Positions 1,131 to 22,305 of a stretch of 64,000 bases of DNA are shown in pieces. The stretch comes from an uncultured delta proteobacterium (lineage in GTDB: Bacteria > Myxococcota_A > UBA9160 > SMWR01). The notes beneath the pieces were generated by a model. That model did no database searches. It was given only the letters and a program-made list of their open reading frames with translations, and had not been told where the DNA came from. The stretch spans positions 352,001 through 416,000 of the forward strand of contig CAWHTE010000011.1 of NCBI GenBank assembly GCA_963832165.1, written 5' to 3'. The translations under genes and the position numbers were made by a program. Position 1 is the stretch's first letter. Each line of letters starts with the position of its first letter.

Positions 1131-1198
1131 GAATCACCTCGCTCACGAGCAGCAGCTCGTCGTCGCTGGTGATTCTCCTGAAACAGCGACGCCGCTGG

Positions 1199-1218
1199 AA
1201 TCCCCAGGTCCATGGATA
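1199..1218 (-). promoter_or_regulatory. 20-bp palindromic operator, copy 1
   Basis: AATCCCCAGGTCCATGGATA; GAGAAT (minus strand, 1172-1177) lies 21 bp downstream. Confidence 0.6.
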
Positions 1219-1518
1219 TCTCATGCAGGAAGCCTGGATTCGAGGCCTCGCTCCGCCGTCCGTGGTTGGTAGGGGCCACATCGAACCAGCGCAGCAGCCT
1301 GGGAAGACTCCCGATCGCTTAGTGCGGGCATTGGTGATCCACGATCTGGGCGCGCTTCAGCTTGAAGACTCTCACCCATTCATTGACCGTCGCGGGCGGA
1401 GCATCCGGGTTGTGCTTGGGTCGGCCGACCGCCGTGTCACGCGCGCCACCTCGAAGAGATCGCGCAACTGAGCGTCGGTCAGCTGGAACTGGCGGGGAGA
1501 ACGCAGGAGTCGCCACAC

Positions 1519-2427
1519 TCAGGGCCACTTGTAGAGCGTGATCATCGCCGGCAGTTGTTCAGTCTCGTCACTCACGATGAGAATGCTGTCCTTCGTGATC
1601 GCGACACCTTCAGGGTGGTGGTGCAGCGCGGGGAGCGGATGCGCGAACACCACCGCTCCTGCCGGCGTGATCGCGATCAGCGCTTTCTCCTCCGACGCAA
1701 TGAGCACATAGTTGCCTGTCAGCGGGTCGATGCTGATGTCAGAGGGATGCAGGGTCTTCCACCCGTTCGTTCCAATGATGGTGGCGAGGGGAACCGTGAG
1801 CTTCGACAGGCGCGCGCCGCTATCACTCTTCAGGCTCCAGCGGTAGATGACGAGCGCGTCGCGGAGGTCTTCGTTGCTTACCTGCTTGCACGCCAGCAGC
1901 AGCGAGTTGATGCTGGGATCGAATGCGACGCCCTCGAATTCGCATTCCTTTTGCAGCCCGGTATCGAGCACCTTGTAATCGACATGGGCGCCGTTCGCGC
2001 CTTCGGGGAACTCATAGAGCTTGCCGTTGCTGGCAAGCAGGAAGATCACGTCGTTTGCGATCGTAATCCCCTCGAAATCGCCCTTCACCACCCCTTTGCC
2101 GAGGGAAAACCGCTTCACCAGGATCCCGCGACGGTAGTCGACCTCCCAGACCTGACCCTGCTCATCGTTGTGCACCAGCAGCCGGCCGTCGCTCGTCAGC
2201 GCAAGTCCCGAGATCTCCTGGAGCGCGTGCGGGAGCAACCATTCTGCGAGCGGGGCTGCGCGCCCGATACTGGCGTTGTCGTCAGCAAGCGCCTTTTCCA
2301 AACGCGTCTCGCGGGCCACCGCCGTCGGACTGGCGATGACTGCCGACAGATCATCCTGGGCGGCCTCACACGCCGCTCCTGCGAGCAGGCAAATAGCCAA
2401 CGACGCTGGGCGTCGAGCACTGCTCAT
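1519..2427 (-). CDS. SdiA-regulated/YjiK-like beta-propeller lipoprotein
   Basis: Motifs LQEISGLA, HNDE, GDFEGI, EFEGV and PEGVAIT; lipobox-like LAGAAC. Confidence 0.7.
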   Translation of the reverse strand: MSSARRPASLAICLLAGAACEAAQDDLSAVIASPTAVARETRLEKALADDNASIGRAAPLAEWLLPHALQEISGLALTSDGRLLVHNDEQGQVWEVDYRRGILVKRFSLGKGVVKGDFEGITIANDVIFLLASNGKLYEFPEGANGAHVDYKVLDTGLQKECEFEGVAFDPSINSLLLACKQVSNEDLRDALVIYRWSLKSDSGARLSKLTVPLATIIGTNGWKTLHPSDISIDPLTGNYVLIASEEKALIAITPAGAVVFAHPLPALHHHPEGVAITKDSILIVSDETEQLPAMITLYKWP

Positions 2428-3545
2428 TTCTGCTGCTCCTGCTCCTTGCGCTCGTGACGGACCTCGCCTGCCTCTTTGGCGATCGCGTCACCGATTTCGA
2501 CTTGCGCTTCAGTAATGACACCACCCGCCTTCGCGCGAATCGCCGTCAACAGCGCATCGCGGCTCACCGACTTTCGGGTGCGGACCAGGTAATAGAGTTC
2601 CGACGGCTTGCCCGTGTTGGTGACCACTTCGTCGAGTTTCCACCGCTTGGTGACCTGGTCCAGCGCGGCCTCGACGTGTTCTTGCGCCTCGGTGAGCATC
2701 GTCGTGGTGATCGTGAGGATCGCGTCGAACTTGGCCTTCTTGGGGTTCGCTCCGAGAATAACGCGAACGCGCCCGAACCGATCGACTAGTTCCTTCACCT
2801 TCGTCGGCGTGAGCGCGAGCACGAGGTCGCGATCGGGGACGGTGTTGCCGCCCTGGTCTTTGCCCGCGAGATCGCGGAGTGGTTCAGCCCATTGCGCGGC
2901 GGCGGTTGGCTCGAGTACCGGGCGACCGAAGTCATACCGCCAGATCAGAACCAGGACGAAGTTGAAAATGATCGAGAGCAGCAGCGCCACCATGATCACC
3001 TGAACACCAGCCGCGAACCCGACCGCGATTGCCAGAAAGATGAACACGACATCGCGTGCGTCGCTCAGGTTCGTGCGGAATCGTACCGCTGCGACGACCC
3101 CGGCAAGGCTGAATGCCAGCGCGAGGCTGTTGCTTACGATCAGCACGATGCCGGCGACGATCATCGGCAACACAAGCAGGGCCTGCACGACGGACTGGTT
3201 GTGGCCCTCGCCTTGCCGTGCCGACATGTACACCCACGTCACCGGCAGCATCAACGCGAGCGTGCTGAGAAAAACGAATGCGGTGCTCAGGCCGAACTCG
3301 AGGTGCGACGTGAGGCCGGCGGTCGGCGCCTGCACCTGGCCGACCTGAAGCCCGTCCTGCAGCAACACTGGCATCTTGGCGAGCTGATCGAGCCGGTCGC
3401 CCGACAATAGGCCATCGAGTACCGGGAAGAAGTGAAAGAGGACGAGGCTGACGAGGAGGAGCAGGGCGTAGTACGCGGCGAGGCGCCGCACCGGCCGCGG
3501 GGAGCCCAGTGTGATGACGCTGATCAGCCGGGTGAAGAAATCCAT
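2424..3545 (-). CDS. DUF4956 family membrane protein
   Basis: NSLALAFSLAGVVAAVRFRT..D.RD..FIF motif. Alternative start at 3554. Confidence 0.75.
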   Translation of the reverse strand: MDFFTRLISVITLGSPRPVRRLAAYYALLLLVSLVLFHFFPVLDGLLSGDRLDQLAKMPVLLQDGLQVGQVQAPTAGLTSHLEFGLSTAFVFLSTLALMLPVTWVYMSARQGEGHNQSVVQALLVLPMIVAGIVLIVSNSLALAFSLAGVVAAVRFRTNLSDARDVVFIFLAIAVGFAAGVQVIMVALLLSIIFNFVLVLIWRYDFGRPVLEPTAAAQWAEPLRDLAGKDQGGNTVPDRDLVLALTPTKVKELVDRFGRVRVILGANPKKAKFDAILTITTTMLTEAQEHVEAALDQVTKRWKLDEVVTNTGKPSELYYLVRTRKSVSRDALLTAIRAKAGGVITEAQVEIGDAIAKEAGEVRHERKEQEQQK

Positions 3546-3731: not shown

Positions 3732-4319
3732 TTAGTAAGCGTTATTCCGCTCGTCGTCGGGCTCAGTCGGCTCGACCAGGCGCTCGAACTCCGCCTGGGT
3801 CAACACACCCGTGCGACGCAGACGCTCCAGGCGCTCGCGGGTCGCGCGGTGCTCGTCCGGAGCGATCGCTTCGTCGCGCATCGAGCGGCGGAGCGCGCGG
3901 GCGACCTCTCGGCCGCGCTCGACCGCCTCGCGATAGCGCGCGCGCAGTGCATCGCCGTGGAGTGCGTCGAGCGTCCCGCTGCGCGCGAAGTGCTCGCGAT
4001 ACACCTCGCCGAGCGCATACGTTGAAGCCCCGGACAGCGCCGCCTGGGTGGCGCTGCCGAGCAGCCAACCCCCTCCCGGGAGCGACTTCACGGCGCTGGC
4101 TCCCACGCGTGCCAGCGAAGCCCCGGCCACCGCCAGCACCGCGGCACGGCCGCGCACGGCGTCGTATTCGACCCCGTAGCGGCGCGCCAGGCGCCGCACC
4201 AGCGCGACCTGGATCACGGCGACGGCGGCGATGTCGACTAGCGGAACCGGAGTGGCGGCCGCCGCCATCGCCGCGGCGACGTGCTTGAGGATCAGCTCGG
4301 TAGCATCGTTGATCGGCAT
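3732..4319 (-). CDS. DUF697/YcjF-like membrane protein with C-terminal SHOCT-like motif
   Basis: PVPLVDIAAV...LARRYG, STYALG, and C-terminal LERLRRTGVLTQAEFE. Confidence 0.7.
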   Translation of the reverse strand: MPINDATELILKHVAAAMAAAATPVPLVDIAAVAVIQVALVRRLARRYGVEYDAVRGRAAVLAVAGASLARVGASAVKSLPGGGWLLGSATQAALSGASTYALGEVYREHFARSGTLDALHGDALRARYREAVERGREVARALRRSMRDEAIAPDEHRATRERLERLRRTGVLTQAEFERLVEPTEPDDERNNAY

Positions 4320-4453
4320 GAGATCGCATGCGCCAAGTTATCGAAAGGACCAGCGCGCGGGGATCGCCAGATCGATGGAGATCGTGGCCAGAAGGTGTCG
4401 ATTCGAGGCGCGCGGCAAGTCATCGCCGCAGAATCAGTCCCTTCGGTGCGCAG

Positions 4454-4473
4454 TTCCCCCGGATCTCGGGATA
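4454..4473 (+). promoter_or_regulatory. 20-bp palindromic operator, copy 2
   Basis: TTCCCCCGGATCTCGGGATA; TAGGGT at 4495-4500 (21-bp spacer). Confidence 0.7.
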
Positions 4474-4535
4474 CCAACGGTCTCCCGCTCCGAGTAGGGT
4501 GCATCTGCCCCAGCGCAGTACCCGAGGGAAGAGCG

Positions 4536-4907
4536 ATGTCGAGTCTCCCGAGCTCTCACGTGCCCAACGGTGATTTCGTTGTGGACGGCGCGGATCCGAG
4601 CTTCGGAAACGCGCTCGAGCGGGTGTACGGTGCCGGGCAAGAGCTGATCGTCCGCCGCATCGACCTGCTCGTCGAGGAACTCGCCGCGCAGGGCCGAAGT
4701 CTCCTCGCCGATACTGGCGGCACGATCTTCGCTGCGATGGCAGCGCTGGTGGGCTGGTTCTTCGTCGTAGCGGGCGTGGTCGACGCGATCGATGACTACG
4801 TTCCGCGTTTCGCGGTCGAGATCGTCGTCGGCATCCTCCATGTCGGAGTCGGCGCCGCGATCACCATTGCGCGGCGGCAGCGGGCCGCAGAGAAGGCCTC
4901 TACGTGA
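4536..4907 (+). CDS. Two-TM membrane protein (YqjE / phage-holin-family-like)
   Basis: ATG at 4536 after GAGGGAAG; amphipathic helix then two hydrophobic segments; first gene of an overlapping operon. Confidence 0.6.
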   Translation: MSSLPSSHVPNGDFVVDGADPSFGNALERVYGAGQELIVRRIDLLVEELAAQGRSLLADTGGTIFAAMAALVGWFFVVAGVVDAIDDYVPRFAVEIVVGILHVGVGAAITIARRQRAAEKAST

Positions 4908-5107
4908 GTTCTTCCGCCGATCAGCGACTGGACGCCCTCCGTGAGCGCGTCGACGAGCAGGAGGTGGAGCTCCACGACGCAGTGCAGGAGTTCGAGGATG
5001 TGGCCCGCCGGGCGATCGATGCGCGGCAATGGATCCGGTCCAGGCCCTTCCTCTGGGCCGCCGGGGCATTCCTCGTGGGTGCGTGGCTGGGAGGACGAAA
5101 AGCATGA
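4904..5107 (+). CDS. Small coiled-coil tail-anchored protein (DUF883/YqjK-like)
   Basis: Ends RSRPFLWAAGAFLVGAWLGGRKA; 4-nt overlaps with both neighbours. Confidence 0.65.
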   Translation: MSSSADQRLDALRERVDEQEVELHDAVQEFEDVARRAIDARQWIRSRPFLWAAGAFLVGAWLGGRKA

Positions 5108-5325
5108 TCGACCCGCAGAGCAATGAAGTGACCCGAGGCAACGGAGCGCACGAGCTCCGCGCGGGCTCCGCTGCGGAACTCGAGGGCCTCTTGCCGCAGA
5201 GTGTGCACGCGCTGGTCGAGCGGGAGGCTCACGTGCGCGAGTTCATCCGATCGCATCCGCTGTCAGTCGTTCTCGGCGCCCTTGCGCTGGGTTTTGCAGT
5301 CGCGAGATGGATGCGGGAGGACTGA
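5104..5325 (+). CDS. ElaB/YqjD (DUF883)-like tail-anchored protein
   Basis: Ends VREFIRSHPLSVVLGALALGFAVARWMRED. Confidence 0.65.
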   Translation: MIDPQSNEVTRGNGAHELRAGSAAELEGLLPQSVHALVEREAHVREFIRSHPLSVVLGALALGFAVARWMRED

Positions 5326-5331
5326 GCGCGC

Positions 5332-5676
5332 ATGTCCGCGGCGACAGGGACTTGGGATGAGAACATCTCCCGCGAGCCTCAGGAAGAGAAAGCCGTGCCG
5401 AGAACGCTCCGCTCGGACCTCGACAGGCTCCGCTCGCGGGTCGCGTCGGCGAAGGATGGCGCGCTGCGTGTGCTGGAAGAAGCCGTCGCGGCGGAGCCTT
5501 TCGTCGCGACCGCTGCCGCGGTCGGACTCGGGCTCGTGTTGGGCGGAGGCTTGCCTCGCGGGACGATCGGGCTGCTGTTCGGGACCGGCATACGCGTCGC
5601 TGCGGCCTGGCTCGGCGAAGAGATCCGGCTGCGAGGTGCAGCAAACGATGACTCCGCAACGGAGGACGACCGATGA
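5332..5676 (+). CDS. DUF883-like membrane protein
   Basis: AEPFVATAAAVGLGLVLGGGLP segment; operon context. Confidence 0.55.
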   Translation: MSAATGTWDENISREPQEEKAVPRTLRSDLDRLRSRVASAKDGALRVLEEAVAAEPFVATAAAVGLGLVLGGGLPRGTIGLLFGTGIRVAAAWLGEEIRLRGAANDDSATEDDR

Positions 5677-6020
5677 ACGACGCGAACGAGAATACTCAAA
5701 TGAACAGGAGACACACGATGATGACCGTCGCCAACCTCGCCAACCTCGCCAATCTCGCGAGCCGCGCGCCGATAGCCTACGAGCTGCTACACCGCATCGG
5801 CCTCGAGCGCCGTCGATCGCGAGCGATTCGCGCCGCGTCGTGCGCGGGATGGATCGGAGTCGGTATGGCCGTAGGTAGCGGACTCACACTGCTCTTGACC
5901 CCTCGAACCGGTGCGGAGATACGCGGACATCTCGGCGAACGCGCCAAGCGCGCGCGCGACTACGTGGTGACCAACGGCATCGAGCCGGCCGGCCGAACGT
6001 CGGCCGCGCAAGCCTCTTAG
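5673..6020 (+). CDS. YtxH-like protein
   Basis: GMAVGSGLTLLLTPRTGAEIR matches the YtxH GxxxGxxxxLLxxPxxGxExR pattern. Confidence 0.7.
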   Translation: MNDANENTQMNRRHTMMTVANLANLANLASRAPIAYELLHRIGLERRRSRAIRAASCAGWIGVGMAVGSGLTLLLTPRTGAEIRGHLGERAKRARDYVVTNGIEPAGRTSAAQAS

Positions 6021-7786
6021 TCCGCTCCGCGCGGTGGCGTGCGAGCGGCGAGGCCGGCAACGGCGCGGCGGAGATCGGGATAAGTATCGTCGGCCCCCGC
6101 TTTGCCGAGCCGCTCCCGGCGCGCGCTGAATTCGGCGTCCTCCGGCTGCCACAACCCGACGAGGATTCGTGCCGAGGGCAACTGGGCGCGCAGCCGTTTG
6201 CAGAGCGCGCGGGCGGCGATCGTGGAGACCGGTGGCAGCGACGAGATGCAGACGATCGACGGCGCGAGGGCCGCGGCCTGAGCGACGGATTCGGCGATGA
6301 GCAGTTTCGATGAGAACACCGTGGCCGCGACGCCGGATTCCGCCAGCACTTGCGCGAGCATCAGCGCGGCGAGTTCATCGCCTTCGTGGCTGGCCGGGAT
6401 GCAGAGGATCGGCGCCGTCGTGCCGTCGGGTGCGACGCGCGGCTCGGCGAGGTCGTCGATGATCTGGCGCAGAATCTGGCAGGCATCTGTGCGGGCAACA
6501 TCCGACAGCACACCCGAGCGGAAATCGGCCTCGATGCTGCGCAATGCCGGAAGCACGGCCTCGTCGAAGGCGACGAGCGTTGTCTGCTCGCGCGCGTGCT
6601 GCTCGACGAACTCGCACGCCTCTTCCTCATTGAGCGCGAGCAGCCGTTGGTAGAGTCGGTCGCCCGGATCGATCGATGGTTTATCGCCCATCAGCAGGTT
6701 GAGGAAGGAAAGGTCGGGCAGATACTTTCCGGCCACCGCGAGACAGACGGTCAGCGGCGTCGCCAGCACCAGCCCGACGCCTCCCCATAGCCACGTCCAG
6801 AAGAGCGCCGAGACGATGACGGCCAGCGGGGAGATTTCCGTGGTCGCGCCGTAGAGCCAGGCCTCGACGCCGTTGGTGACCAGCTCGATGGCGACGAAGA
6901 GACCGACGGTGAGAATCGGCTCCGTCCACGATTCGAAAATGGCAATCGAAAGCGCGACCGGAAACACCGCGGCGAGCCACGGACCGATGTACGGCAGGAA
7001 CCGCAGCCCCATTCCCAGCAGTCCCCAGAACACCGCGTTCGGAATTCCGATGAAATACAACCCGACGGCGATCGCGATGCCGAAACTGGCATTGAGCAGC
7101 AACTGCGCGCGCAGATATCGGCTGATGCGTTGCGTGGCTTCATCGAGCGCCTGCGTCGTCACGCGCAGGCGGCCCCGGCCCACGAGATGGATCAGCCGGT
7201 CGCGCAGGTCTGCGCCGGCGATGAGCATGAAGGTCGCGATCACGATGACGACCAGCGCGCTGGCGAGTGGCCCGACGACCGGCGACAGCACACCCATGAG
7301 CAGTTGAATCGAGCCGTCTGCCGTCCCGACCACCTCGACCTGCACGGGCCGTGTCTCGTCCGCCGATGCGGGTGTCGAGACCACGTCCTGCGGCTTATTC
7401 AGCGCGGCAGTCACTTCGCTGATGGTCTGCACCGCGCGGCGCAGCGGGTTGTTTTCGTTCGTCTTCAGCGCTGCCACCCGCGCGATGAGGTTGCTCCGGT
7501 ATTTCGGCAGCGACTCCGCGAGATCGAGGAACTGACCTGTGACGACGTAAGCCAGCCCGCCGATCAGCACGAAGGCCAGCGTCGCCGTGGCGAACACCGC
7601 GCCCACGCGCCCGAGCCGCCAGCGTTCCAAGCGCCGGACGAGCGGCGACAGCAGAAAGCTCAGCAGCGCAGCGAGCACCAGCGGAAGAAAGAAATCCCGT
7701 GCAAAGCGCAGTGTCGCCGCCGCGGAAATGAACAACGCCAAGATCAACAGCGGCCCAGTCAAACTCCTGCGGTCGATGAGGTTCAT
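6017..7786 (-). CDS. AI-2E family transporter with C-terminal B12-binding-like domain
   Basis: LRDRLIHL, ISRYLRAQ, RFLPYIGP, FWTWLWGGVGLVLATPLTVC; C-terminal DELAALML...VCISSLPP. Alternative TTG start at 7804. Confidence 0.85.
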   Translation of the reverse strand: MNLIDRRSLTGPLLILALFISAAATLRFARDFFLPLVLAALLSFLLSPLVRRLERWRLGRVGAVFATATLAFVLIGGLAYVVTGQFLDLAESLPKYRSNLIARVAALKTNENNPLRRAVQTISEVTAALNKPQDVVSTPASADETRPVQVEVVGTADGSIQLLMGVLSPVVGPLASALVVIVIATFMLIAGADLRDRLIHLVGRGRLRVTTQALDEATQRISRYLRAQLLLNASFGIAIAVGLYFIGIPNAVFWGLLGMGLRFLPYIGPWLAAVFPVALSIAIFESWTEPILTVGLFVAIELVTNGVEAWLYGATTEISPLAVIVSALFWTWLWGGVGLVLATPLTVCLAVAGKYLPDLSFLNLLMGDKPSIDPGDRLYQRLLALNEEEACEFVEQHAREQTTLVAFDEAVLPALRSIEADFRSGVLSDVARTDACQILRQIIDDLAEPRVAPDGTTAPILCIPASHEGDELAALMLAQVLAESGVAATVFSSKLLIAESVAQAAALAPSIVCISSLPPVSTIAARALCKRLRAQLPSARILVGLWQPEDAEFSARRERLGKAGADDTYPDLRRAVAGLAARTPPRGAD

Positions 7787-7809
7787 GGTCGGGTGAGTTT
7801 GCACCGCGC

Positions 7810-7831
7810 GAGCTGGATTTGAATCCAGTTC
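7810..7831. repeat. Solo copy of the HNH-associated palindrome
   Basis: GAGCTGGATTTGAATCCAGTTC; core CTGGATTTGAATCCAGTT is identical to the copies at 46368 and 47449. Confidence 0.8.
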
Positions 7832-7868
7832 GACGTGGTCCGATCGGCGCAGCGCCGTCGTTGGTCGA

Positions 7869-8969
7869 CTACTGGGCCTTCACCGTGAGATCGCCGACCA
7901 CCGAGCGCACGCCATCGGTGGTGCGAGCGACGGTGAGCGCTGTCAGCCGGTCGGGTTGACCGCGGACGGTCCCGGTCAGTCGCGCGACGCCGTCAGCCAC
8001 CTCTACGTCGATGTTCGCGTCGGAGAGCTCCCCGCGCGCTGAAAGGTGCTTCTCGATCGCGTCCTTCACCCGGTCGTCTTTGTGCTCGACCGCGGCGGCC
8101 GATACCTGCGGCACGACCTGGAGATCGTTCTCGACGCTCTTCACGGCGTCGACTTTCCTGACCTCGGTCTCGGCCGCGCGCCGCGCGGCCTCCGTGGGCA
8201 CGGTGCCGAACAGCGTCACGACGCCACCCAGCGTATCGACGTTGATGTCGCGCGCGGGGGTGTCGGAGCTCGCGATCAGCCGGACCTTCGCCGCCGTGGT
8301 GATCCACGCATCCTTCGCCGCCGACGCTGTGTCGGTCTTGGGATCGCTCTTCGCGTCGCGCCAGATCTCGTCGTCGGCCAACGTGTCCGGGCTCTCGATC
8401 TCGCTGGCAACGCGCTTCACGCCGGGGACCGCGCGCGCCACCTCGAGTGCGCGCAGGTGCGCGCTCAGCGTCCGCGCGTTTCCGTCCAGCAGCACGACGC
8501 CCCGGTTCGCCGACTTCACGGCGATCTTGCTGTCGCGCAGCGCGGGATCCGCGTCGAGTCGCTTCCCGACCTCCTTGGAAAGCGCCTCGTCGGCGACGGC
8601 CGCTGTTTCCTGGCGGGGCTTCTCGACGACCTGCAACAGACTTCGCAGCTCGTGCACACCCTTCACACCCCGGGCCGCGCGCTCGGCGCGAGCCTTCTCG
8701 TCGGCACTCGAGACGGTTCCGTGCAGCGTAACTTTGGCATCCGTCGTATCCACGCGGACGGCGGTCGCGCTCACGTCCTCCGCCACGAGGAGCGCCATCT
8801 TGACCTTGGTCGTGATCCAGGCGTCGGGCGCGTCCGCGGCGCTCGAGGGACCCGCCCAGGTCGCGCTGGCGATAAACAGCACAGCCGCGAGCGCGAGTGA
8901 GTGATTCACCATCGTGCGCCCGAGGATGCACGCGATCGAACCCAGCATGATCAAGACAATGACTGACAT
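7869..8969 (-). CDS. Exported protein with four BON domains (OsmY-like)
   Basis: Repeated DAWITxxxK...V.T..G.VTL.GTV...V.GV..V units; RBS GGAG before ATG 8969. Confidence 0.88.
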   Translation of the reverse strand: MSVIVLIMLGSIACILGRTMVNHSLALAAVLFIASATWAGPSSAADAPDAWITTKVKMALLVAEDVSATAVRVDTTDAKVTLHGTVSSADEKARAERAARGVKGVHELRSLLQVVEKPRQETAAVADEALSKEVGKRLDADPALRDSKIAVKSANRGVVLLDGNARTLSAHLRALEVARAVPGVKRVASEIESPDTLADDEIWRDAKSDPKTDTASAAKDAWITTAAKVRLIASSDTPARDINVDTLGGVVTLFGTVPTEAARRAAETEVRKVDAVKSVENDLQVVPQVSAAAVEHKDDRVKDAIEKHLSARGELSDANIDVEVADGVARLTGTVRGQPDRLTALTVARTTDGVRSVVGDLTVKAQ

Positions 8970-9057: not shown

Positions 9058-9077
9058 TATCCATGGATCCATGGGTA
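9058..9077 (-). promoter_or_regulatory. 20-bp palindromic operator, copy 3
   Basis: TATCCATGGATCCATGGGTA; TAGCGT (minus strand, 9031-9036), 21-bp spacer. Confidence 0.75.
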
Positions 9078-10609: not shown

Positions 10610-10642
10610 GGCCAGCCGAGTACGAGAGTGCAGCGGGTGCCC

Positions 10643-12116: not shown

Positions 12117-12136
12117 TATCCCGGGATCCACGGGAA
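12117..12136 (-). promoter_or_regulatory. 20-bp palindromic operator, copy 5
   Basis: TATCCCGGGATCCACGGGAA; TAGGGT (minus strand, 12090-12095), 21-bp spacer. Confidence 0.75.
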
Positions 12137-12714: not shown

Positions 12715-12770
12715 TCGGGGACCCTTCCTTTGTTACGCTCGCGCAAGACGCCGGGCGCGGTGAGCAACGC

Positions 12771-13169
12771 CTAGCTTGGGTGGCGCACGGCCGCTCGCGC
12801 GATCAACAAGCTGGCGACGAATATTACGAGCCCGGTCGCCTCCGGAATCGGCAGCGCGGTGCTCCGCGGGTCACGCATGGGCACGGCGAGCCGCGTCGAG
12901 ATCCGATCGCGCCACTCGTGCGCTCGCCAGTCCTCGCGAAGGCCCGGCGGAAGCTCGTCACTCTCGAACCGACCCGGCGGAAGGTCGTCGACGAGAATGG
13001 GAGACGCGCCATCGTAGAGCGGGACGCCACGCTCCGGCGAATTCAACTGGATCGACGAATCGTCGCGGTCCGCTTGCTTCTGACAGGAGTCGTCGAGGCA
13101 CGGCACGGCCTGCGCGGGAGTGCAGAGCAGCGCAAGACCGAAGGCGAGAATCCACTTCGGACGCAGCAA
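12771..13169 (-). CDS. Small exported protein with PEP-CTERM-like tail
   Basis: Signal peptide ending AQA; C-terminal IPEAT, hydrophobic stretch, then basic residues. Confidence 0.55.
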   Translation of the reverse strand: MLRPKWILAFGLALLCTPAQAVPCLDDSCQKQADRDDSSIQLNSPERGVPLYDGASPILVDDLPPGRFESDELPPGLREDWRAHEWRDRISTRLAVPMRDPRSTALPIPEATGLVIFVASLLIARAAVRHPS

Positions 13170-13226: not shown

Positions 13227-13246
13227 TATCCGCGGATCCGGGTATA
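13227..13246 (-). promoter_or_regulatory. 20-bp palindromic operator, copy 6
   Basis: TATCCGCGGATCCGGGTATA; TAGCGT (minus strand, 13200-13205), 21-bp spacer. Confidence 0.75.
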
Positions 13247-13310: not shown

Positions 13311-14873
13311 CTAGCGCGCCAGCCCCAACGCGGCGCGGTCCGCGCATCCGATCGCGACGAGGAACATCACGCTCTTGCCGGCGGCGTGCGGCGAGAAGAA
13401 CTCCGTGACCTCGTCGTCGTAGAAGGTGAGCCCCGTGGCGCCTAACCCCTGCGCGTAGGCCGCGAGATACAGACGGCCGCCGATGATTCCCCCCTCGAGC
13501 TGAGCGGCGCGATAGCCGCGATTGCCGAATCGGTCGAGGACGCGCGGCAGATCCACCAGGCTGTAGATGTTGACGGCCGCGTCGGCGGCCAGCGGCTGAT
13601 CGAGCGCGAGGTGCCCCGCCTCGCTCCGGAGGCTTCCCTCGCGCAGCAGCTCGAGCGATCGCTCGGCGCGCCGGTAGGTGTAGCTGCCGGGAGCGAGGCC
13701 TTCGACCGCGTTCACGATCAGATAGAGATCCAGCAGCGTTCCGTCCGGAGGCGCCAGGAAGTCGGCGGGTATGTCTGCGGACGCGCACTCGAGCGCTCGC
13801 GAGAGTGCTTCGAAGGAGATCGATCTCATGCGGTCGAACGCTCGGGTCGATCCGCGCCGCCGGATCACGTGATCGAGTGACTCTTCCGGCGGCGGGGAAT
13901 CGAGGCGTAGACGCGTAAGCGCTCCCTTCGGTGCGGGCTCCTTGCGCGCGGAAGAGCTCCCCTTCCAGATCCGCGCCTCGTCGCCATCGGCGAGCGATGA
14001 GGCGGCGTGGGCGCGTCGGATCTCCGGGAAGTCGATCTCCTTTCGTGAGAGCGGCCGGGTTGCGAGCTCGAGCTTCATCGGGCTGGAGGCCGGCGGTGCC
14101 GGGTGAAGCGCGTGCCCGAGAGGGACGCAGGTGAGCGTCCCCTCGCGTCGCGGATCGAGACCCAAAAGGCGTTCCACCGGTCCGTCCGCCCAGCCGAGGA
14201 CGATTCGCGGTGAGAGCTCCTCGGTCGCGGCGACAGCGAGCAGGTTGGCGTGCAAGGTGCCCGCGTCCCAGAAGCAGTGCCGCCACGCGCGCGCTTGATA
14301 CTTCCAGCTGTTGCGCCAGTACGTCGATGCGCTCACCACCAAGACCGGCGCGCGCGCGAGCGCCGGATCACCGCCCGCCGCCTCCACCAGAACGCCGCGC
14401 CAGTCGCCCTCTCGCAAACGTGTCAGCGTGAAGTCGTGCGGGCCGAAGTGATAGGCGCCCGCCGGGAGCGCCTCGAGGTCGCCCGTCACGAGGTACAGAT
14501 CCACGTGGTGGAGCGCGCCGGTGTTGGCGTAGGCGCGGAGATAGATCTCTCCACCTGGGTGACGCTTGCGCTTGGTGATCCCCGCCGAGAGCTGGAGCAC
14601 GCGCGAGAGTGCCCGGAGATCCGGGCTGCGCGTGCCGAGCGATCCGCGCTTCGTGGACGAGCGGCTCGCCATTGCGGTGAGCGCTGGGATCGCCGGCTCG
14701 GAGAAGTCCCGCGGAAGAGCGATCCGATCGAGATCCGGATAAACCTTGAACGGAAGCGGACGATTCTCCCAGTCGAGCGCGTAGCGGCTCGCCCGCACAC
14801 TCTGCGGGCTGTGCTTCGTCGCCTCGTGGTAGGTGACGATCTCGTGGATATCCCGGTTCCCCATCGTCACCAC
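13311..14873 (-). CDS. SagB/ThcOx-type tandem nitroreductase-domain flavoprotein
   Basis: YHEATKHS, LRAYANTGALH, WKYQARAWRH, IRRRGSTR, RGYRAAQLEGG, GATGLTFYDD. Confidence 0.82.
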   Translation of the reverse strand: MVTMGNRDIHEIVTYHEATKHSPQSVRASRYALDWENRPLPFKVYPDLDRIALPRDFSEPAIPALTAMASRSSTKRGSLGTRSPDLRALSRVLQLSAGITKRKRHPGGEIYLRAYANTGALHHVDLYLVTGDLEALPAGAYHFGPHDFTLTRLREGDWRGVLVEAAGGDPALARAPVLVVSASTYWRNSWKYQARAWRHCFWDAGTLHANLLAVAATEELSPRIVLGWADGPVERLLGLDPRREGTLTCVPLGHALHPAPPASSPMKLELATRPLSRKEIDFPEIRRAHAASSLADGDEARIWKGSSSARKEPAPKGALTRLRLDSPPPEESLDHVIRRRGSTRAFDRMRSISFEALSRALECASADIPADFLAPPDGTLLDLYLIVNAVEGLAPGSYTYRRAERSLELLREGSLRSEAGHLALDQPLAADAAVNIYSLVDLPRVLDRFGNRGYRAAQLEGGIIGGRLYLAAYAQGLGATGLTFYDDEVTEFFSPHAAGKSVMFLVAIGCADRAALGLAR

Positions 14874-14898
14874 TAGCGACGGAGCCGTCGCTTACCGA

Positions 14899-15117
14899 CT
14901 AGCTCGGTTTGAACGCCAGCAGCGCGACCCCGCCAACCACGATCGCGCAAACGCCAGCCCACACCGGGACGTTGACGGTTTCCCTGTCCTTCACCGACAG
15001 CTCGAGCGGGCCGATCTTGGCCTCGTGGGTCTCCTTGGTGTAGCTGAAGCCACCGTACGCCAGCCCAAGGATGCCGCATACCATCAGCACGATTCCGACC
15101 ATCTTGATTGCGCTCAT
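14899..15117 (-). CDS. Small two-TM membrane protein (DUF3185-like)
   Basis: YGGFSYTKETHEAKIGPLELSV...VPVWAG. Confidence 0.75.
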   Translation of the reverse strand: MSAIKMVGIVLMVCGILGLAYGGFSYTKETHEAKIGPLELSVKDRETVNVPVWAGVCAIVVGGVALLAFKPS

Positions 15118-15150
15118 CTCGTATCGCCTCGGATCAACCCGGAGTTCGAC

Positions 15151-15318
15151 TCAGCGCAGTGCGCGCTTGGCCTTATCGATCAGATTCTCGGCCTTCTTTT
15201 TGATCTTCCCGACGGCCTGGTCGGTCTTCCCCTGCCGCTTCAGTCCCTTGTCGTTGGTCAAAACTCCCGCAGCTTCCTTCACCCGACCCTTCAGTTCATC
15301 AGCCTTGCCACTCGCCAT
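15151..15318 (-). CDS. csbD: CsbD family stress protein (55 aa)
   Basis: Not in the ORF track. MASGKADELKGRVKEAAGVLTNDKGLKRQGKTDQAVGKIKKKAENLIDKAKRALR*; RBS AGGAGG. Confidence 0.88.
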   Translation of the reverse strand: MASGKADELKGRVKEAAGVLTNDKGLKRQGKTDQAVGKIKKKAENLIDKAKRALR

Positions 15319-15355
15319 GTTCGATTCCTCCTGATTGTTTCCTGCCGACCGTCAG

Positions 15356-15619
15356 TTACTGCTGCGGTCGACGCTTCGCTTCGATTCGATCACCCACCTT
15401 CAATCCCTTGAGCGTCTCGTCGGACGCCTCGAACTCGTGGGGCTTGCCGTCGCTGCTGCGCACCGTCACGCGGCTCCGATCGAGATCGATCTTCGTCACC
15501 TCTCCCGCGACGACCTCGGAAGCCTGCTCCACTGCCAACGCCGTCCGCGGCGCGACGAAGATGCCTAGCCCCAGGGCGACCGTCAGCGCGATCGCTGCGA
15601 GACCGAGACTCTTCCTCAT
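15356..15619 (-). CDS. Small exported beta-barrel/OB-fold-like protein
   Basis: Signal peptide; GEVTKID...VTV...LKVGDRI; RBS GAGGAG. Confidence 0.7.
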   Translation of the reverse strand: MRKSLGLAAIALTVALGLGIFVAPRTALAVEQASEVVAGEVTKIDLDRSRVTVRSSDGKPHEFEASDETLKGLKVGDRIEAKRRPQQ

Positions 15620-15629
15620 GACTCCTCCT

Positions 15630-15857
15630 CTAATCTTCATCGTTCGATTCGTGTCGGGTGATGTCATAGATGGCGCCCGCTACCGCGCCGACACCCGTGC
15701 CGATCATTGCGCCCTTGCCGGCCCCGTAGCCCGTCGAGGCACCGATGGCCGCGCCGCCAGCCGCCCCCACCGCGGCACCGGTTAGGGTCCCGCAACCCGC
15801 GAAGATCAGGGCTGCGAGCATCAGGGCCAGAATCGCCCTCGTTATGCGAGCCGTCAT
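15630..15857 (-). CDS. Glycine-zipper lipoprotein
   Basis: Lipobox FAGC; GAAVGAAGGAAIG...GAMIGTGVGAVAGAIY. Confidence 0.8.
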   Translation of the reverse strand: MTARITRAILALMLAALIFAGCGTLTGAAVGAAGGAAIGASTGYGAGKGAMIGTGVGAVAGAIYDITRHESNDED

Positions 15858-16065: not shown

Positions 16066-16085
16066 TATCCACGGATCCGGGGGTA
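16066..16085 (-). promoter_or_regulatory. 20-bp palindromic operator, copy 7
   Basis: TATCCACGGATCCGGGGGTA; TAGCTT (minus strand, 16039-16044), 21-bp spacer. Confidence 0.75.
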
Positions 16086-16489: not shown

Positions 16490-16509
16490 TTTCCCGGGAT
16501 CTGTGGATG
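16490..16509 (+). promoter_or_regulatory. 20-bp palindromic operator, copy 8
   Basis: TTTCCCGGGATCTGTGGATG; CACGCT at 16532-16537 (22-bp spacer). Confidence 0.6.
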
Positions 16510-16584
16510 GACCACCCAGCACCCGCTTTGCCACGCTCTCGCCGCTCGGGACGGGAACCCGGAGTGATGGACCAGGGGGTGGCG

Positions 16585-17016
16585 ATGAGCGAGTGGGCGG
16601 GCCTCAGCGTAGGCTTCTTCGGCGGGGCGCGAGCGAGCCGTCGATCTCGGATCCATGGTAGGCGCATCCTCTATGTCGACGACGAGCTCTCGATGCGGCT
16701 CGCGGTGGCGCGCGTGCTGCGCGGCGCTGGCGCGGTCTGTCTCGGCTCCGCTACTCACGACCAGGCCGTCGTGCTGCTCGCGTTCGAACCCCGCGTCGAC
16801 TTGGCGATTCTCGATTTTCAGATGCCAGACGGCGACGTGGGCCGTCTGGTGAAACGCCTGCACTGGCAGCGCTCCGCTCTGCCGCTGGTGGGGACGAGCG
16901 GTTCGGATCAGCGCGCCGAGTTCGCCGCGCGGGGAGTCGACCGCTTCCTGCCGAAGCCCTGGGCGCTCGATGATCTGATCCGCGTCGCGGATTGGTCGGA
17001 AGTGCCTGTCAGTTGA
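16585..17016 (+). CDS. Single-domain response regulator (receiver)
   Basis: ILYVDDE...DLAILDFQMP...TSG...FLPKPW. Start uncertain. Confidence 0.82.
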   Translation: MSEWAGLSVGFFGGARASRRSRIHGRRILYVDDELSMRLAVARVLRGAGAVCLGSATHDQAVVLLAFEPRVDLAILDFQMPDGDVGRLVKRLHWQRSALPLVGTSGSDQRAEFAARGVDRFLPKPWALDDLIRVADWSEVPVS

Positions 17017-17092: not shown

Positions 17093-17112
17093 TCTACCGG
17101 GATCTGGGGATA
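17093..17112 (+). promoter_or_regulatory. 20-bp palindromic operator, copy 9
   Basis: TCTACCGGGATCTGGGGATA; TAGTGT at 17135-17140 (22-bp spacer). Confidence 0.65.
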
Positions 17113-17267
17113 CTCGCGATCCTTCCTTCTACGGTAGTGTGGGTAATTCCCTCTCCGGGGGCAGGCGGCTTTGACGCAGCGAAGCCTGCTCGTGGCGGCG
17201 GATCTTTTGATTGCACGGGGAGCTGGCACCCGGCCCGTCCGTTCAGCCCAACAGCAAGAGTGTCACC

Positions 17268-20200
17268 ATGGCCGGCAAGAGAGGTACGACTCGCGCCCCG
17301 CGAATCTCCGGCAGGAAGCGAAAACCTGCCCCCCAGAAGGCGAGTGAGGGCGCGCCGAAGCAGCCCGGTTCGGGCCCCGTTTTCACCGGGTCCGTTTCGG
17401 CGCGCGCACCGGACACGGGGCCTCTGATCGTCGGAGTTGGAGGTTCGGCCGGTTCGCTCTCGCCGCTGCGCGAGTTCCTTGCAGCGATCCCCGCGGACTG
17501 CGGCATCGCATTCGTCGTCGTGAGCCACCAGGCCTCCGCGGGTCACAGCTTGCTCCCTGGGATCCTCGCGAAGTGCACCGAGATGACGGTGCGCGAGATC
17601 GGCGAGGAGACCCGCGTCGAACCGAATCACGTCTACGTCGAGTCGCACGGGCACCCTGTGGCGATTCGAGGCGGGATGTTGAGCCTCGAGCCGATCGCCG
17701 TGCGCAGCGTTCCGCATCTGCCGATCGATCTGTTCTTCCGCGCGCTCGCCCGCGATCAGGGGCGCCACGCCGCCGGCATCGTGCTCTCCGGAACCGGAAC
17801 CGATGGCACGCTGGGTCTCGCAGCGATCCGCGCAGCATCCGGCCTCTCCCTGGTGCAGGATCCCGCGACCGCCGAGTTCGATGGAATGCCGGTCAGCGCT
17901 ATCCAAGCACACGCAGCGGACTTCGTCCTATCGCCGGCGGAAATGCGAGCGCGCCTGCTCGTCCATCGGGATGGGCTCGCCTCGCTGGCGCGCCCAGACG
18001 GCGCGCCCGAGTTCGCAAGCAGCGAGATCGAGAGGGTCCTCGCGGTGATGCGCCATCGCGCAGGCCGCGATTTCTCCGAATACAAGCACGCAACGCTGGC
18101 TCGCCGCATCGCGCGGAGAATGCATCTCCGCGGTATCGACGGCGTGGAGGCGTACGCGCGTTTCCTGGATCAGAGCGACGCCGAGGTCGATGCCCTCTGG
18201 CATGACTGGCTGATCGGGGTCAGCAGCTTTTTTCGCGACCCGGAAGTCTTCCAGGCACTGGAGGCCGCGCTTCCGGACCTGCTCGCCGGGCGCGAAGACG
18301 GCTCTCCGCTGCGGATCTGGGTCCCGGGTTGTGCGACCGGTGAAGAGGCCTATTCACTCGTCATCGTCCTGCTCGAGGTCCTGACAAGGCTGGAGATGCA
18401 CCTGGAAGTGCAGGTGTTCGCTACGGACCTCAACCCCGCAGCGATCCAGGTCGCCCGTGCGGGGCGCTATGCCGAGGGCATCGCGGTGGATGTCGGCGAA
18501 CAGCGCCTCGACCGGTTCTTCTCGAGAGAAGGCGAGCTCCATCGCGTCAAGAAGGAGGTGCGCGATCTCGTGGTCTTCGCGGTTCAAGACGCCCTGCGCG
18601 ACCCGCCCTTTACCCGCGTAGATCTCGTGTCGTGCCGGAACTTCCTGATCTATTTGGAGCCCAGCGCGCAGCGGCGCCTGTTCGGGTCCTTCCACTACAG
18701 CCTGACTCCTGGAGGACTGCTTCTGCTCGGTTCATCCGAGAGCGTCACCGGCTCCGAGTCGTTCTTCGCGCCGCTCGACGGACATTGCAAGATCTTCCGG
18801 CGCAACGACGCTACCGCGCGGCAGCCGACGTTGCGCTTTCCGGCAACACACGGCGCGTACCTAGACGCTGCGGCGGGCGCTCCCTCCGTCGGTGCAAAGA
18901 CCGATCTGGCAAGCCCGCTGCGCAGGGCGCTGGCGGAGCGCTTCGGTCCGCCGGCCGTGCTCGTCGACGAGCGGGGACAGATCCAGCAGATCCATGGGCG
19001 CGTGGGTGCCTACCTCGAGCTGCCAGCGGGGCGAGTCAACGTGAACATCGTCGACATGGCGAGGGAAGGTCTCCGGGCACCGCTTGCCTCGGCGCTTCGC
19101 GAGGCGATCGAAACGGATGGCCAGGTCGCAGAGCGAAGCGTCCGCGTTCTCGTCGAAGGAGACCGGCTCGCGTTGCATGTGAAAGTGGCGCGGCTGCTCG
19201 AGCCGGGCCTCGTGCCACGGCTGTTCCTCGTCTCGTTCGAGCCGGCGGAACGCGGCGCACGGCAGCGCGCGCGGAAGAGCGAGCCGATCGCCGGGGCACG
19301 CAGGGGTCGAGGCGGGGTGAAGCTGGAGGAGGAGCTCCGGAATACGCGGAACGACCTACAAGGCAGCATCGACGAGCTCCAGGCGGCGAACGAGGAGCTG
19401 GCCTCCGCGAACGAAGAAGCGCAATCGGCGAACGAGGAGCTTCAGAGCACGAACGAAGAGCTCCAGACTGCCAAGGAGGAGACGCAATCGCTCAACGAGG
19501 AGCTCCATACCGTGAATGCAGAGCTCACGGAGAAACTCGAAAACTTCCAGCGGGCGACCGACGACCTGCTGAATCTGATGAACAACATCGAGATCGCCAC
19601 CATCTTCCTGGACGAACAGCTGCGGGTGAAGCGCTTCACGCCGCAGGCGCGCAATGTCGCGCGCCTGATCGACGCCGATATCGGGCGTCCGCTGGCCGAC
19701 CTGGCCACAGTCCTCGACTACCCCGACCTTCTGTCGGACGCGGCGAGCGTGATCGAGACCCTTCACGCTTCGGAGACGCAGGCGGCCGCTCCCGGCGGAA
19801 GCTGGTACCTCGTGCGAATCCGGCCCTATCGCACCGCGCGAAACACCGCCCAGGGCGTCGTCATAACATTCGTCGACATCACGGATGCGAAGCGCACTGA
19901 ACGCCTCCAGGCGGCGCGCGTGCTGGCGGAGAGCATCGTGGATGCGGTGCGCGAGCCCTTCCTGGTCCTGGACGGCAGGCTGCGCGTCGTGCGGGCGAAC
20001 CGCGCCTACTACCGGGCGTTCAGGGTCGAGCCGGAGCAGACCGACGGCCGGCTGATTGGAGAGCTCGGAAGTCAGCAGTGGAGCATCCCGATGCTGCGCG
20101 AGCGCCTGGAGAAGGCCCTGCAAGAGGGCACCGGCTTCGACGACTTCGAAGTGGAGCGTGAGTTTCCCCACCTCGGACGACGCAGGATGCTGTTGAACGC

Positions 20201-20312
20201 TCGACCGTTGTCGCCCGAGGATGGCACGGCCGCCGAGCTCGTCTTGCTCGGGATCCAGGAGCTCGGTGGGTCGCAGGCGGAGACGCCGAGAAGCGAGGGA
20301 GGGCGCCAATGA
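17268..20312 (+). CDS. CheB methylesterase-CheR methyltransferase fusion with coiled coil and PAS domains
   Basis: CheB motifs GGSAG, VSH, LSGTGTDG; CheR motifs FFRDPE, WVPGCATGEEAYS, FATD, SCRNFLIY; EELQSTNEELQTAKEE coil; C-terminal PAS domains. Confidence 0.92.
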   Translation: MAGKRGTTRAPRISGRKRKPAPQKASEGAPKQPGSGPVFTGSVSARAPDTGPLIVGVGGSAGSLSPLREFLAAIPADCGIAFVVVSHQASAGHSLLPGILAKCTEMTVREIGEETRVEPNHVYVESHGHPVAIRGGMLSLEPIAVRSVPHLPIDLFFRALARDQGRHAAGIVLSGTGTDGTLGLAAIRAASGLSLVQDPATAEFDGMPVSAIQAHAADFVLSPAEMRARLLVHRDGLASLARPDGAPEFASSEIERVLAVMRHRAGRDFSEYKHATLARRIARRMHLRGIDGVEAYARFLDQSDAEVDALWHDWLIGVSSFFRDPEVFQALEAALPDLLAGREDGSPLRIWVPGCATGEEAYSLVIVLLEVLTRLEMHLEVQVFATDLNPAAIQVARAGRYAEGIAVDVGEQRLDRFFSREGELHRVKKEVRDLVVFAVQDALRDPPFTRVDLVSCRNFLIYLEPSAQRRLFGSFHYSLTPGGLLLLGSSESVTGSESFFAPLDGHCKIFRRNDATARQPTLRFPATHGAYLDAAAGAPSVGAKTDLASPLRRALAERFGPPAVLVDERGQIQQIHGRVGAYLELPAGRVNVNIVDMAREGLRAPLASALREAIETDGQVAERSVRVLVEGDRLALHVKVARLLEPGLVPRLFLVSFEPAERGARQRARKSEPIAGARRGRGGVKLEEELRNTRNDLQGSIDELQAANEELASANEEAQSANEELQSTNEELQTAKEETQSLNEELHTVNAELTEKLENFQRATDDLLNLMNNIEIATIFLDEQLRVKRFTPQARNVARLIDADIGRPLADLATVLDYPDLLSDAASVIETLHASETQAAAPGGSWYLVRIRPYRTARNTAQGVVITFVDITDAKRTERLQAARVLAESIVDAVREPFLVLDGRLRVVRANRAYYRAFRVEPEQTDGRLIGELGSQQWSIPMLRERLEKALQEGTGFDDFEVEREFPHLGRRRMLLNARPLSPEDGTAAELVLLGIQELGGSQAETPRSEGGRQ

Positions 20313-21539
20313 GCTCCAGGAGCCACAGATCGCGGCCGCCCGACTCGCTCCGCGTGCTCGCCGATCAGCGGATGGCGGAGACAGCACCCGTCGATCTGGA
20401 GCGCCTCACGCCGAACGAGATCCAGGCCCTCATCTATGAGCTGGAGCTTCACAAGATCGAGTTGAAGATCCAGAACGAGCAGCTCTGGGAGGCGCAGCGA
20501 GCGACAGAGGTATCCAACGAGCGCTTTCGCCGTCTCTACGATGCGGCTCCGACCGGCTACCTGACGCTCGATTTCGACGGGATGATCGTCGAGGCGAACC
20601 TATCTATTTCCGTCATCCTGAAGACTTCGCGCCAACACCTGATCGGGAGAAAGCTTTCGGAGTTCGTCGTTGCGAATTGCCAGGATCGCTGGCATCTCGC
20701 GCGGCGTGATCTGATCGAGGGCCGGACGCGCAAGGATCTCATGCTGGAGATCGCGCCGGCCGACGGAAGTGCTGTCGACCTCCAGATCGTGGGCACGTCG
20801 GCGGCCGCTACCGAAGCCACGCCGAGAGAGATCCATCTCGTTCTGATCGACGTGACGGAGCAGCACAGGACGGAGCGCGCGTTGCAGGCTGCCGTGGTGG
20901 CGGCGACCCTGGCCGAAGAGAGGGAGCGCCGCAAGCTGGCGGCAGATCTGCACGACGACGCCGGCCAGCTGCTCTCGCTAGCGTCGCTCAAGCTGAACGC
21001 GTTAGGCGAAGCCCGCGAGGTGGAGCGGGGTGCCCGGATGGCCGAGCTGGAGGATCTGCTCGTGGTGATCCGCCGCCGGATCTCTTCGCTGAGCTTCCAG
21101 CTGAGCCCTCCGCTGCTTCACGATGTCGGGCTGATCGCGGCCCTCCAGTGGCTCGCAGAGGATCTGGAGGCCAGCCATGGCCTCTCGGTGAAGATCATCG
21201 AGGAGCATGAGTTGGACCTCGATGAGAACTCGCGCGTCACGTTCTACCGGGCGATTCGCGAGCTGCTCCTCAACGTGGTGAAGCACTCAGGTGTCAAGGA
21301 GACCCGCATCCGGGTGTCACGGGAGGGAGCGATGGCGCGGATTGCCGTGGAGGACGGTGGTGTCGGTATGCCCCCGAGAGCCAAGCGCCCGCGGCTTCGG
21401 ACTGCTGGCGCTGCGCGAGCGAGTGGAGCAGCTGGGCGGGTCGCTCGAAACCCGCAGCACTCCGGGCAGCGGAACCACGGTCGTGGTCAGCCTTCCGATC
21501 CGTCTCTCCCTACCCAACCTCGAAGGGGGTGCAAGATGA
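20309..21539 (+). CDS. PAS sensor histidine kinase (HisKA_3), frameshifted near 21390
   Basis: EERERRKLAADLHDDAGQ, ELLLNVVKHS, VEDGGVG; the conserved end GFGLLALRERVEQLGG...GTTV lies in another frame ending at 21539. Confidence 0.85.
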
Positions 21540-22183
21540 TGACCCGTATTCTGCTCGTGGACGATCATGAGTTGATGCGCGAGGGATTGCGCTCGATTCT
21601 CGAGGGCGAAGCCAACGTCGAGATCGTCGGCGAAGCCTCGAGCGGCCGCGAGGCCGTGGTGCTCTCGCGCACGCTCGAACCGGACGTGGTGGTCATGGAC
21701 GTGGGCATGAGCGATCTGAACGGAATCGATGCCACCCTGCAGATTCGACGCGAGTTCCCCGACGTCCAGGTGATTGCACTCTCGAGCCATTCGGACAGCC
21801 GCTATGTGAGTGCCATACTCGAGGCGGGCGCATGCGGCTACGTGCTCAAGGCGAACGCCTACGCCGACCTTCGCAAAGCGCTGCAAGCTGCCCGGCAGGG
21901 GAAGAACTACCTCTGCGCGGAGGTCACGAAGGGGGTGGTGGACGCCTCCCTCCACGGACCTCGGAACGGAGTCGACCCGTCCGTGCTCTCCCCGCGCGAG
22001 AGAGAGGTTCTGCAGCTGCTGGCCGAAGGCCAGAGCTCTCCGCGGATCGGGAAGCGCCTGTTCATCGCCACCAGCACGGTCGAGACCCACCGGCGCAGCA
22101 TCATGCGCAAACTCGAGATCCACAGCGTCGCGGATTTGACGAAGTGGGCGATTCGCGAAGGGCTGACTCAACTCGAAGCGTGA
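21536..22183 (+). CDS. NarL/LuxR family response regulator
   Basis: ILLVDDH, DVVVMDVGM, GYVLK, LSPREREVLQLLAEG...TVETHRRSIMRKL; ATGA overlap with the kinase stop. Confidence 0.92.
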   Translation: MMTRILLVDDHELMREGLRSILEGEANVEIVGEASSGREAVVLSRTLEPDVVVMDVGMSDLNGIDATLQIRREFPDVQVIALSSHSDSRYVSAILEAGACGYVLKANAYADLRKALQAARQGKNYLCAEVTKGVVDASLHGPRNGVDPSVLSPREREVLQLLAEGQSSPRIGKRLFIATSTVETHRRSIMRKLEIHSVADLTKWAIREGLTQLEA

Positions 22184-22226
22184 ACCCGGCCCGGTCGACG
22201 ACCGAATCCGCGCTTCCGCAGCGCGT

Positions 22227-22246
22227 TATCCGCAGATCCGGGGATA
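22227..22246 (+). promoter_or_regulatory. 20-bp palindromic operator, copy 10
   Basis: TATCCGCAGATCCGGGGATA; weak -10-like GACCCT at 22268-22273 (21-bp spacer). Confidence 0.7.
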
Positions 22247-22305
22247 GCGACGGCGGGGACGGTGACGGACCCTGCTCCCTGTGGGAAGCCTGGACGGGGG
22301 GGGGC

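Follow-up and report, generated by a model that had tools for sequence, protein, structure and literature searches.

The first 23 kb of a 64,000-nucleotide stretch of contig CAWHTE010000011.1 (positions 352,001 to 416,000; below, the window) from an uncultured delta proteobacterium (GenBank assembly GCA_963832165.1) carry part of a gene island in which genes for small membrane proteins, BON-domain and CsbD proteins, cardiolipin synthase and an extracytoplasmic function (ECF) sigma factor lie together with a NarL/FixJ-family response regulator, a cytoplasmic kinase and a CheB-CheR-PAS protein (Table 1). The intergenic regions of this island share a 20-bp imperfect palindrome (consensus TATCCnnG-GATC-CnnGGRTA, below called the box) that is followed by a -10-like hexamer, and we find that this feature is a real and conserved promoter element of stress genes.

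Operator boxes in the window and the genome

An earlier analysis made from the letters alone (the sequence-only reading) had reported ten such boxes, all intergenic and none after 23 kb, each with a -10-like hexamer at 21 to 22 bp that faces the next gene. We recovered all ten boxes and hexamers at the reported positions with spacers of 21 or 22 bp, none of the ten overlaps a gene called by a codon-model gene caller, and beyond 23 kb scores do not rise above 4.3 bits. With a symmetric matrix, the window boxes reach leave-one-out scores of 20.9 to 29.6 bits, and a mean of 0.003 hits per 23-kb sequence is expected by chance (300 simulated sequences). Across the 5.5-Mb genome (G000), 23 places score at least 19 bits, and 21 of these are intergenic though the genome is 89% coding. 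All 21 fall within three islands (10 in the window, 3 upstream of it on contig C11, 7 on C7, and 1 on C4), while the remaining two lie inside genes elsewhere. With a composite matrix that covers both boxes of the tandem described below, 30 places are obtained in the whole genome (27 in islands), and an eleventh window site at 4362 is added. Sites 11335 and 13227 lie within a duplicated promoter of around 115 bp (85% identical), so the ten window sites are not all independent. Outside the islands, a lone composite-like site (G000:C1:561649; 22.5 bits) has a loose hexamer and faces a short open reading frame (ORF).

Table 1. Operator boxes, regulatory genes and predicted target genes of the island (window coordinates)
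Feature	Position	Strand	Second box copy	Hexamer	Remark
26-amino-acid hydrophobic microprotein	1050..1130	-			predicted target
Primary box	1199..1218	-	1221-1240	1172-1177	faces the 26-amino-acid membrane microprotein
DUF697 protein	3732..4319	-			predicted target of box 4362
Primary box	4362..4381	-	4384-4403	4335-4340	weaker, overlooked by the sequence-only reading; faces DUF697 gene, back to back with 4454
Primary box	4454..4473	+	4432-4451, weak	4495-4500	
Five small membrane-protein genes	4560..6020	+			predicted target operon; first holin-X-like, last YtxH-like below cut-off
4xBON (OsmY-like) protein (7869-8969), then AI-2E transporter (6017-7804)	6017..8969	-			predicted targets
Primary box	9058..9077	-	9080-9099	9031-9036	
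ECF sigma factor (10643-11260) and cardiolipin synthase (9242-10609)	9242..11260	-			predicted targets
Primary box	11335..11354	-	weak or shifted, ~11357-11377	11307-11312	promoter duplicate of 13227
Collagen-like/OmpA protein	11465..12001	-			predicted target
Primary box	12117..12136	-	12139-12158	12090-12095	
Small secreted protein (12771-13169; no family hit) and single-BON protein (12379-12714)	12379..13169	-			predicted targets
Primary box	13227..13246	-	13249-13268	13200-13205	
Glycine-zipper protein, 87-amino-acid protein without assignment, CsbD, small membrane protein, SagB-type nitroreductase	13311..15857	-			predicted target run
Primary box	16066..16085	-	16088-16107	16039-16044	
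Primary box	16490..16509	+	16468-16487, weakest	16532-16537	
Stand-alone receiver	16567..17016	+			predicted target
Primary box	17093..17112	+	17071-17090	17135-17140	faces cheBR-kinase-regulator operon; predicted autoregulation
CheB-CheR-coiled coil-PAS protein	17211..20312	+			start may be 17268
PAS-HisKA_3-HATPase kinase, cytoplasmic	20309..21539	+			likely cognate kinase; adjoins regulator
NarL/FixJ-family response regulator (receiver and GerE helix-turn-helix)	21536..22183	+			likely binder, predicted
Primary box	22227..22246	+	22205-22224	22268-22273	44 bp past regulator stop, a position recurring in relatives
Sensorless HisKA-HATPase kinase	22306..23091	+			predicted target; DUF5670/lmo0937 small protein next at 23364-23519

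A tandem operator at a nearly fixed distance from the hexamer

The operator is not a single box but a tandem of a primary box and a degenerate secondary copy 22 bp upstream of it. The box matrix peaks at an offset of -22, with a mean of -6.2 bits compared to -20.5 bits at the mirror position of +22. Column counts over 91 sites reveal that conservation of the primary box is highest in the half nearest the promoter and that the upstream copy keeps the distal half and part of the centre; at two loci of relatives (L023 and L024), this copy is a near-complete second palindrome. An alignment of 32 sites shows the boxes and hexamer positions conserved and the flanks not.

The strict form of the hexamer (TANNNT) is found at 7 of the 10 window sites and 15 of 40 other sites, compared to around 1.1% of random intergenic positions. 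Of 50 sites, we set aside 22 as ambiguous and one that lies in a gene; for the other 27, orientation was taken from the neighbouring gene and nothing else. Among these 27, the strict hexamer lies toward the gene in 14 cases and away from it in none, and the loose hexamer in 25 versus one. Similarly, 29 metagenome sites that had been found with a matrix built only from the window have the loose hexamer on the predicted side in 24 cases and on the wrong side in four. The spacer between box and hexamer is almost fixed at 21 to 22 bp, which predicts boxes centred near -43.5/-44.5 and -65.5/-66.5 if the hexamer is the -12 to -7 element. The hexamer itself resembles the ordinary upstream hexamers of this genome, which has five sigma70 region-3 matches over the cut-off. 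At 22 to 24 bp upstream of the hexamer, a -35-like triplet is present at none of 47 regulon sites versus 73 of 644 ordinary upstream hexamers. The activator-type geometry proposed by the sequence-only reading is thus borne out by hexamer orientation, the offset of -22 and the near-fixed spacer. A separate idea, Dam-type methylation control via the central tetramer, has no support because no PF02086 match was found in this 89%-complete genome.

The island regulator as the probable activator

Co-occurrence across genomes and the promoter geometry together make it likely that the NarL-family regulator of the island is the activator acting at these boxes. This protein consists of a receiver and a GerE domain (PF00072 and PF00196) with invariant D9, D10, D55, and K105 and aligns with VraR, NarL, and DevR, and it reaches the cut-off of none of the named NCBIfam equivalogs listed. 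A profile of the regulator finds it in 28 of 193 genomes of the order (E<=1e-75), patchily distributed across families, and a phylum search that scored seven candidates per genome found it in at least 8 of 401 genomes, all of them in this order. Close named regulator records are, among the matches listed, mostly from metagenome-assembled genomes of Myxococcota or delta-proteobacteria. Its taxonomic range may be wider than seen, because the phylum search was limited to these seven candidates and the other scans cover the matches listed.

Counts of the core 20-mer pattern across relatives were noisy and lacked sensitivity, with just one hit in many genomes and no hit in some that carry the island, and we dropped them in favour of a profile of aligned sites. 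This model (R1) spans 75 positions and was built from 32 referenced sites, with training sites from 14 genomes. All 14 members of the core regulator clade (Shimodaira-Hasegawa-like approximate likelihood ratio support of 98 in a quick tree) are accompanied by sites. With R1, strong sites (E<=1e-4) are found in 21 of 151 genomes of the order, and 18 of these 21 hold the regulator whole, cut or decayed. Sixteen have a full regulator of the core or sister clade, while in G069 the gene is cut by the contig end (84%) and in G027 a 75% helix-turn-helix remnant lies around 2.3 kb from a site. Among the metagenome loci listed, 17 of the 27 whose regulator is 61% or more identical have a match, compared to none of 53 below 61% (365 kb), and a box follows the regulator gene within 200 bp at 11 of 24 close loci versus 4 of 48 distant ones. 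The sequence-only reading had named this regulator as the binder, and its predicted binding agrees with these comparative results.

Several points weigh against this assignment. Under a lenient threshold, hits also appear at 14 of 72 distant loci (5 of 74 with the core matrix), which is why the sharper tests used the 75-position model, and the cut-off of E<=1e-4 was set at a visible gap after the table had been inspected. Only 8 of the 21 positive genomes were fully held out of training, and these comprise four with a full regulator, two with a partial one, and two with none. Strong sites without a clade regulator found by this query occur in G026 (78% complete), G192 (79%), and G159 (93%, sites on a 2.7-kb contig). 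Conversely, five outer homologues with similar recognition helices come without strong sites (none in G183 and G190; E=0.014 in G145, E=0.006 in G098, and E=0.0015 in G144), 10 of the 27 close metagenome loci have no site (many of them on short contigs), and the metagenome positive L222 repeats a training genome. The result of 0/47 for -35-like triplets is modest, with about five expected. Finally, the co-occurrence holds for the whole cheBR-kinase-regulator module and the compared kin are not independent, so that any co-mobile gene would co-occur and the regulator assignment remains an inference.

It is unlikely that the boxes are genuine activator sites of another binder, either a core-genome factor or a co-mobile one such as the product of an XRE-type helix-turn-helix gene beside the C7 island. 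This XRE gene has a match in 16 of the 22 genomes with strong sites, two of which (G026 and G159) yielded no regulator, but it is also present in 58 of 193 genomes, among them G001, G012, G028, G040, and G050 that have no R1 match, and was not found in the site-bearing G042, G057, G119, G151, G153, and G192. Sites of a core factor would be expected in most genomes, but 130 of 151 are without a match at E<=1e-4, and Crp-family genes (PF13545 over cut-off; only this genome searched) are on C2 and C3 only, outside the islands.

Repression by the same regulator is very unlikely. The proximal box does abut the -35 position and NarL-family proteins can repress, but the lack of a -35-like triplet leaves little basal activity to repress, the almost fixed spacer is as expected for polymerase contact, and the predicted box position equals the activating site of NarL at yeaR. 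Recognition of the element by the island ECF sigma factor as its own promoter would fit the presence of ECF genes in several islands and is highly improbable nonetheless: a tandem palindrome is at odds with a -35/-10 pair, the hexamer is like those ordinarily found upstream of genes in this genome, and the window ECF gene is itself downstream of a box; apart from the copy in the C7 paralogue (79%), the 193 genomes hold no close orthologue of it (next best 52-53%). That the copies are mere relics of promoter duplication or of a small mobile repeat, as the duplicated promoters (11335/13227, and 22227 with C11:348697) and the decay and insertion sequence (IS) fragments of the islands could suggest, is largely refuted already and next to impossible, since only boxes and hexamer positions are kept among the 32 aligned sites and since sites precede unrelated genes in many families with an orientation that follows the gene.

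A receptor-less CheB-CheR protein and a cytoplasmic kinase as the proposed input

If the island regulator is the activator, a phosphorylated dimer would sit on the proximal box and cooperatively load a second dimer on the upstream box, and the bound regulator would recruit sigma70-type polymerase to an intrinsically weak promoter. The phosphate would come from the adjacent cytoplasmic PAS kinase, which the receptor-less CheB-CheR-PAS protein may tune, as the gene order suggests. In this lineage, the cheBR-kinase-regulator operon would also drive itself. The kinase is part of 23 of 24 locus sets and CheBR of 18 of 24. In alignment with solved CheB, the CheB domain retains the Ser, His, and Asp residues that we take to be the catalytic triad. 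None of the island genes scanned was found to encode a chemoreceptor.

In the assembled sequence, a +1 frameshift near 21388 in the window copy of the kinase gene joins the kinase in frame with the regulator, while three homologous genes are without the extra base. The C7 copy of the regulator also has one extra base (around 5130 of G000:C7), so that the kinase is broken in the window copy and the regulator in the C7 copy. Both frameshifts are likely assembly indels, because 14 of 116 orthologues of G001 genes are frame-switched in this assembly (some of these may be false calls or real breaks), and together with the three homologues this led us to reject the kinase-regulator fusion as a biological feature. 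Further broken kinase fragments are found at the start of C7.

The positive feedback proposed by the sequence-only reading holds for the three copies in this genome but not in general. A box faces the cheBR operon in only 8 of the 20 loci that have the cheBR start in view, that is, in the three copies here and in G005, G119, G069, L216, and L222 (7 of 27 loci do not have this start in view), and feedback is therefore a lineage feature rather than a defining one. Likewise, the gene of the ECF sigma factor described as subordinate does follow a box here as a predicted target, but it is accessory, and a search of the other 192 genomes gave nothing closer than 52-53%.

Beyond this scheme, we tentatively raise a rather doubtful possibility, namely that the receptor-less CheB-CheR protein sets the activity of the cytoplasmic kinase by methylating and demethylating glutamates, probably those of its own Glu-rich coiled coil. 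Chemotaxis-style adaptation chemistry might then run a general-stress regulon, as a three-gene module that is portable between families and recruits new promoters, including the dispersed ones of genus g32. If this is true, such orphan CheBR modules would gain their first DNA read-out with the tandem box.

Predicted target genes and island neighbourhood

The predicted targets would make up a general-stress or stationary-phase gene set when compared with the known contents of the RpoS and SigB regulons. Two family labels given to targets by the sequence-only reading, DUF883 and PEP-CTERM, are resemblances by eye and have no Pfam or NCBIfam hit. In relatives, boxes precede genes for BON, GlsB/YeaQ-type, hemerythrin, CBS, superoxide dismutase, DUF5670, sigma54-activator, and non-orthologous ECF proteins, based on a family scan of 43 chosen proteins that come mostly from the 90 downstream ORFs of 111 sites; 17 of the 43 are without a family. 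Two unnamed families without Pfam hits recur directly downstream of boxes in several genomes (L006:1003-1416 and L130:7843-8592), and tblastn did not find either in this genome. In genus g32 (G048 and G191; L150-L160), sites are spread over many contigs, and boxes often precede hydrophobic microproteins of 22 to 31 amino acids or no called ORF, suggesting that these dispersed boxes point to unannotated small genes or RNAs.

The three islands of this genome lie at C11:342-375 kb (which includes the first 23 kb of the window and thus runs on upstream of it), C7:1-26 kb, and C4:479-485 kb. Those on C11 and C7 (G000:C11:342000-375500 and G000:C7:1-26000) are paralogous with 75-93% protein identity for most shared genes, while the C4 paralogue is a third, more distant cheBR-kinase-regulator operon. 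A decayed island is found beside groEL at L193:8000-11400 (G027:C47), where two composite sites have stayed intact amid IS pieces and the remains of ECF, kinase and regulator genes. The XRE-type gene (L004:11727-12122) is highly conserved (mostly 65-86% identity) and enriched among island carriers. Downstream of a weak composite site at C11:350333 follow a Family 1 encapsulin with ferritin-like cargo and then an Fe/Mn superoxide dismutase (L002:16919-18138 and window 171-899). Inside the island, SdiA-regulated-like and DUF4956 membrane genes (window 1519-3554) have no box found directly before them, and a metallophosphoesterase gene lies upstream (L002). In G005, a 2,850-amino-acid GH94 protein, presumably cyclic beta-glucan synthase-like, adjoins the regulator (L005:6219-14771) and has homologues in loci of G057, G042, and others.

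Comparison with known systems

We found no description of this system in the full-text literature, a coverage that leaves subscription journals outside. From the present analysis come predictions of the operator, the regulator and the target genes behind a general-stress programme of an uncultured Myxococcota-type order, and the annotated but unexplained module of CheB-CheR-PAS protein, kinase and NarL-family regulator gains a measurable output. A reporter with one box pair could test what the methylation module senses.

By content, the regulon resembles the RpoS, SigB and EcfG-PhyR-NepR responses with their OsmY/BON, CsbD, lmo0937-type and GlsB/YeaQ small proteins, cardiolipin synthase and hemerythrin. 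Unlike these sigma-run stress responses, control is predicted to pass through a DNA-binding response regulator at tandem operators, in a patchily distributed module. Unlike EcfG, the ECF sigma factor is a dispensable downstream target here, with no close orthologue in other site-bearing genomes; neither PhyR nor NepR was seen among the island genes scanned, and no genome-wide search for them was made.

By design, the system is like DevR/DosR of Mycobacterium tuberculosis, which combines a NarL-family regulator with an 18-20-bp palindrome, stress-type targets and autoregulation. At DevR promoters, a primary box and a degenerate secondary box in phase with it are both required; at tgs1 they lie at -42.5 and -63.5, compared to around -43.5 and -65.5 predicted here, with a box spacing of 21 bp versus 22 bp (PMC3177182). 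The half-site given for the Dev box (PMC3177182) differs from the half-site of our matrix when compared by eye. The match of the regulator to DevR is weak (99.8 bits, below those to VraR or NarL), and the recognition helix is different. The input of DevR are the haem-GAF kinases DosS and DosT, whereas here it would be a CheB-CheR-PAS protein and a PAS kinase without GAF, and the targets listed here are of an envelope/osmotic type, unlike the DevR/DosR regulon.

The other close parallel is E. coli NarL, which shares the fold family (119 bits) and activates yeaR from -43.5 in a non-canonical class II mode (PMC10853779), the centre that a 21-bp spacer predicts for the primary box here, just upstream of the -35 position. 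There, NarL is described as binding a 16-bp 7-2-7 site (PMC10853779), while the box of this study is a 20-mer with a conserved centre. With numbering read from the alignment, NarL Lys174 corresponds to Pro169, Arg178 to Lys173, and Lys188/Val189/Lys192 to Glu183/Thr184/Arg187, and the regulator stays below the NarL equivalog cut-off (144 versus 250 bits). Unlike in the NarL system, there is no nitrate sensor and there are no nitrate genes here. The system would work like NarL at yeaR and like DevR but belongs to neither, since box, recognition helix and kinase differ; the activation mechanism itself is familiar, and the most interesting part is the receptor-less CheB-CheR input.

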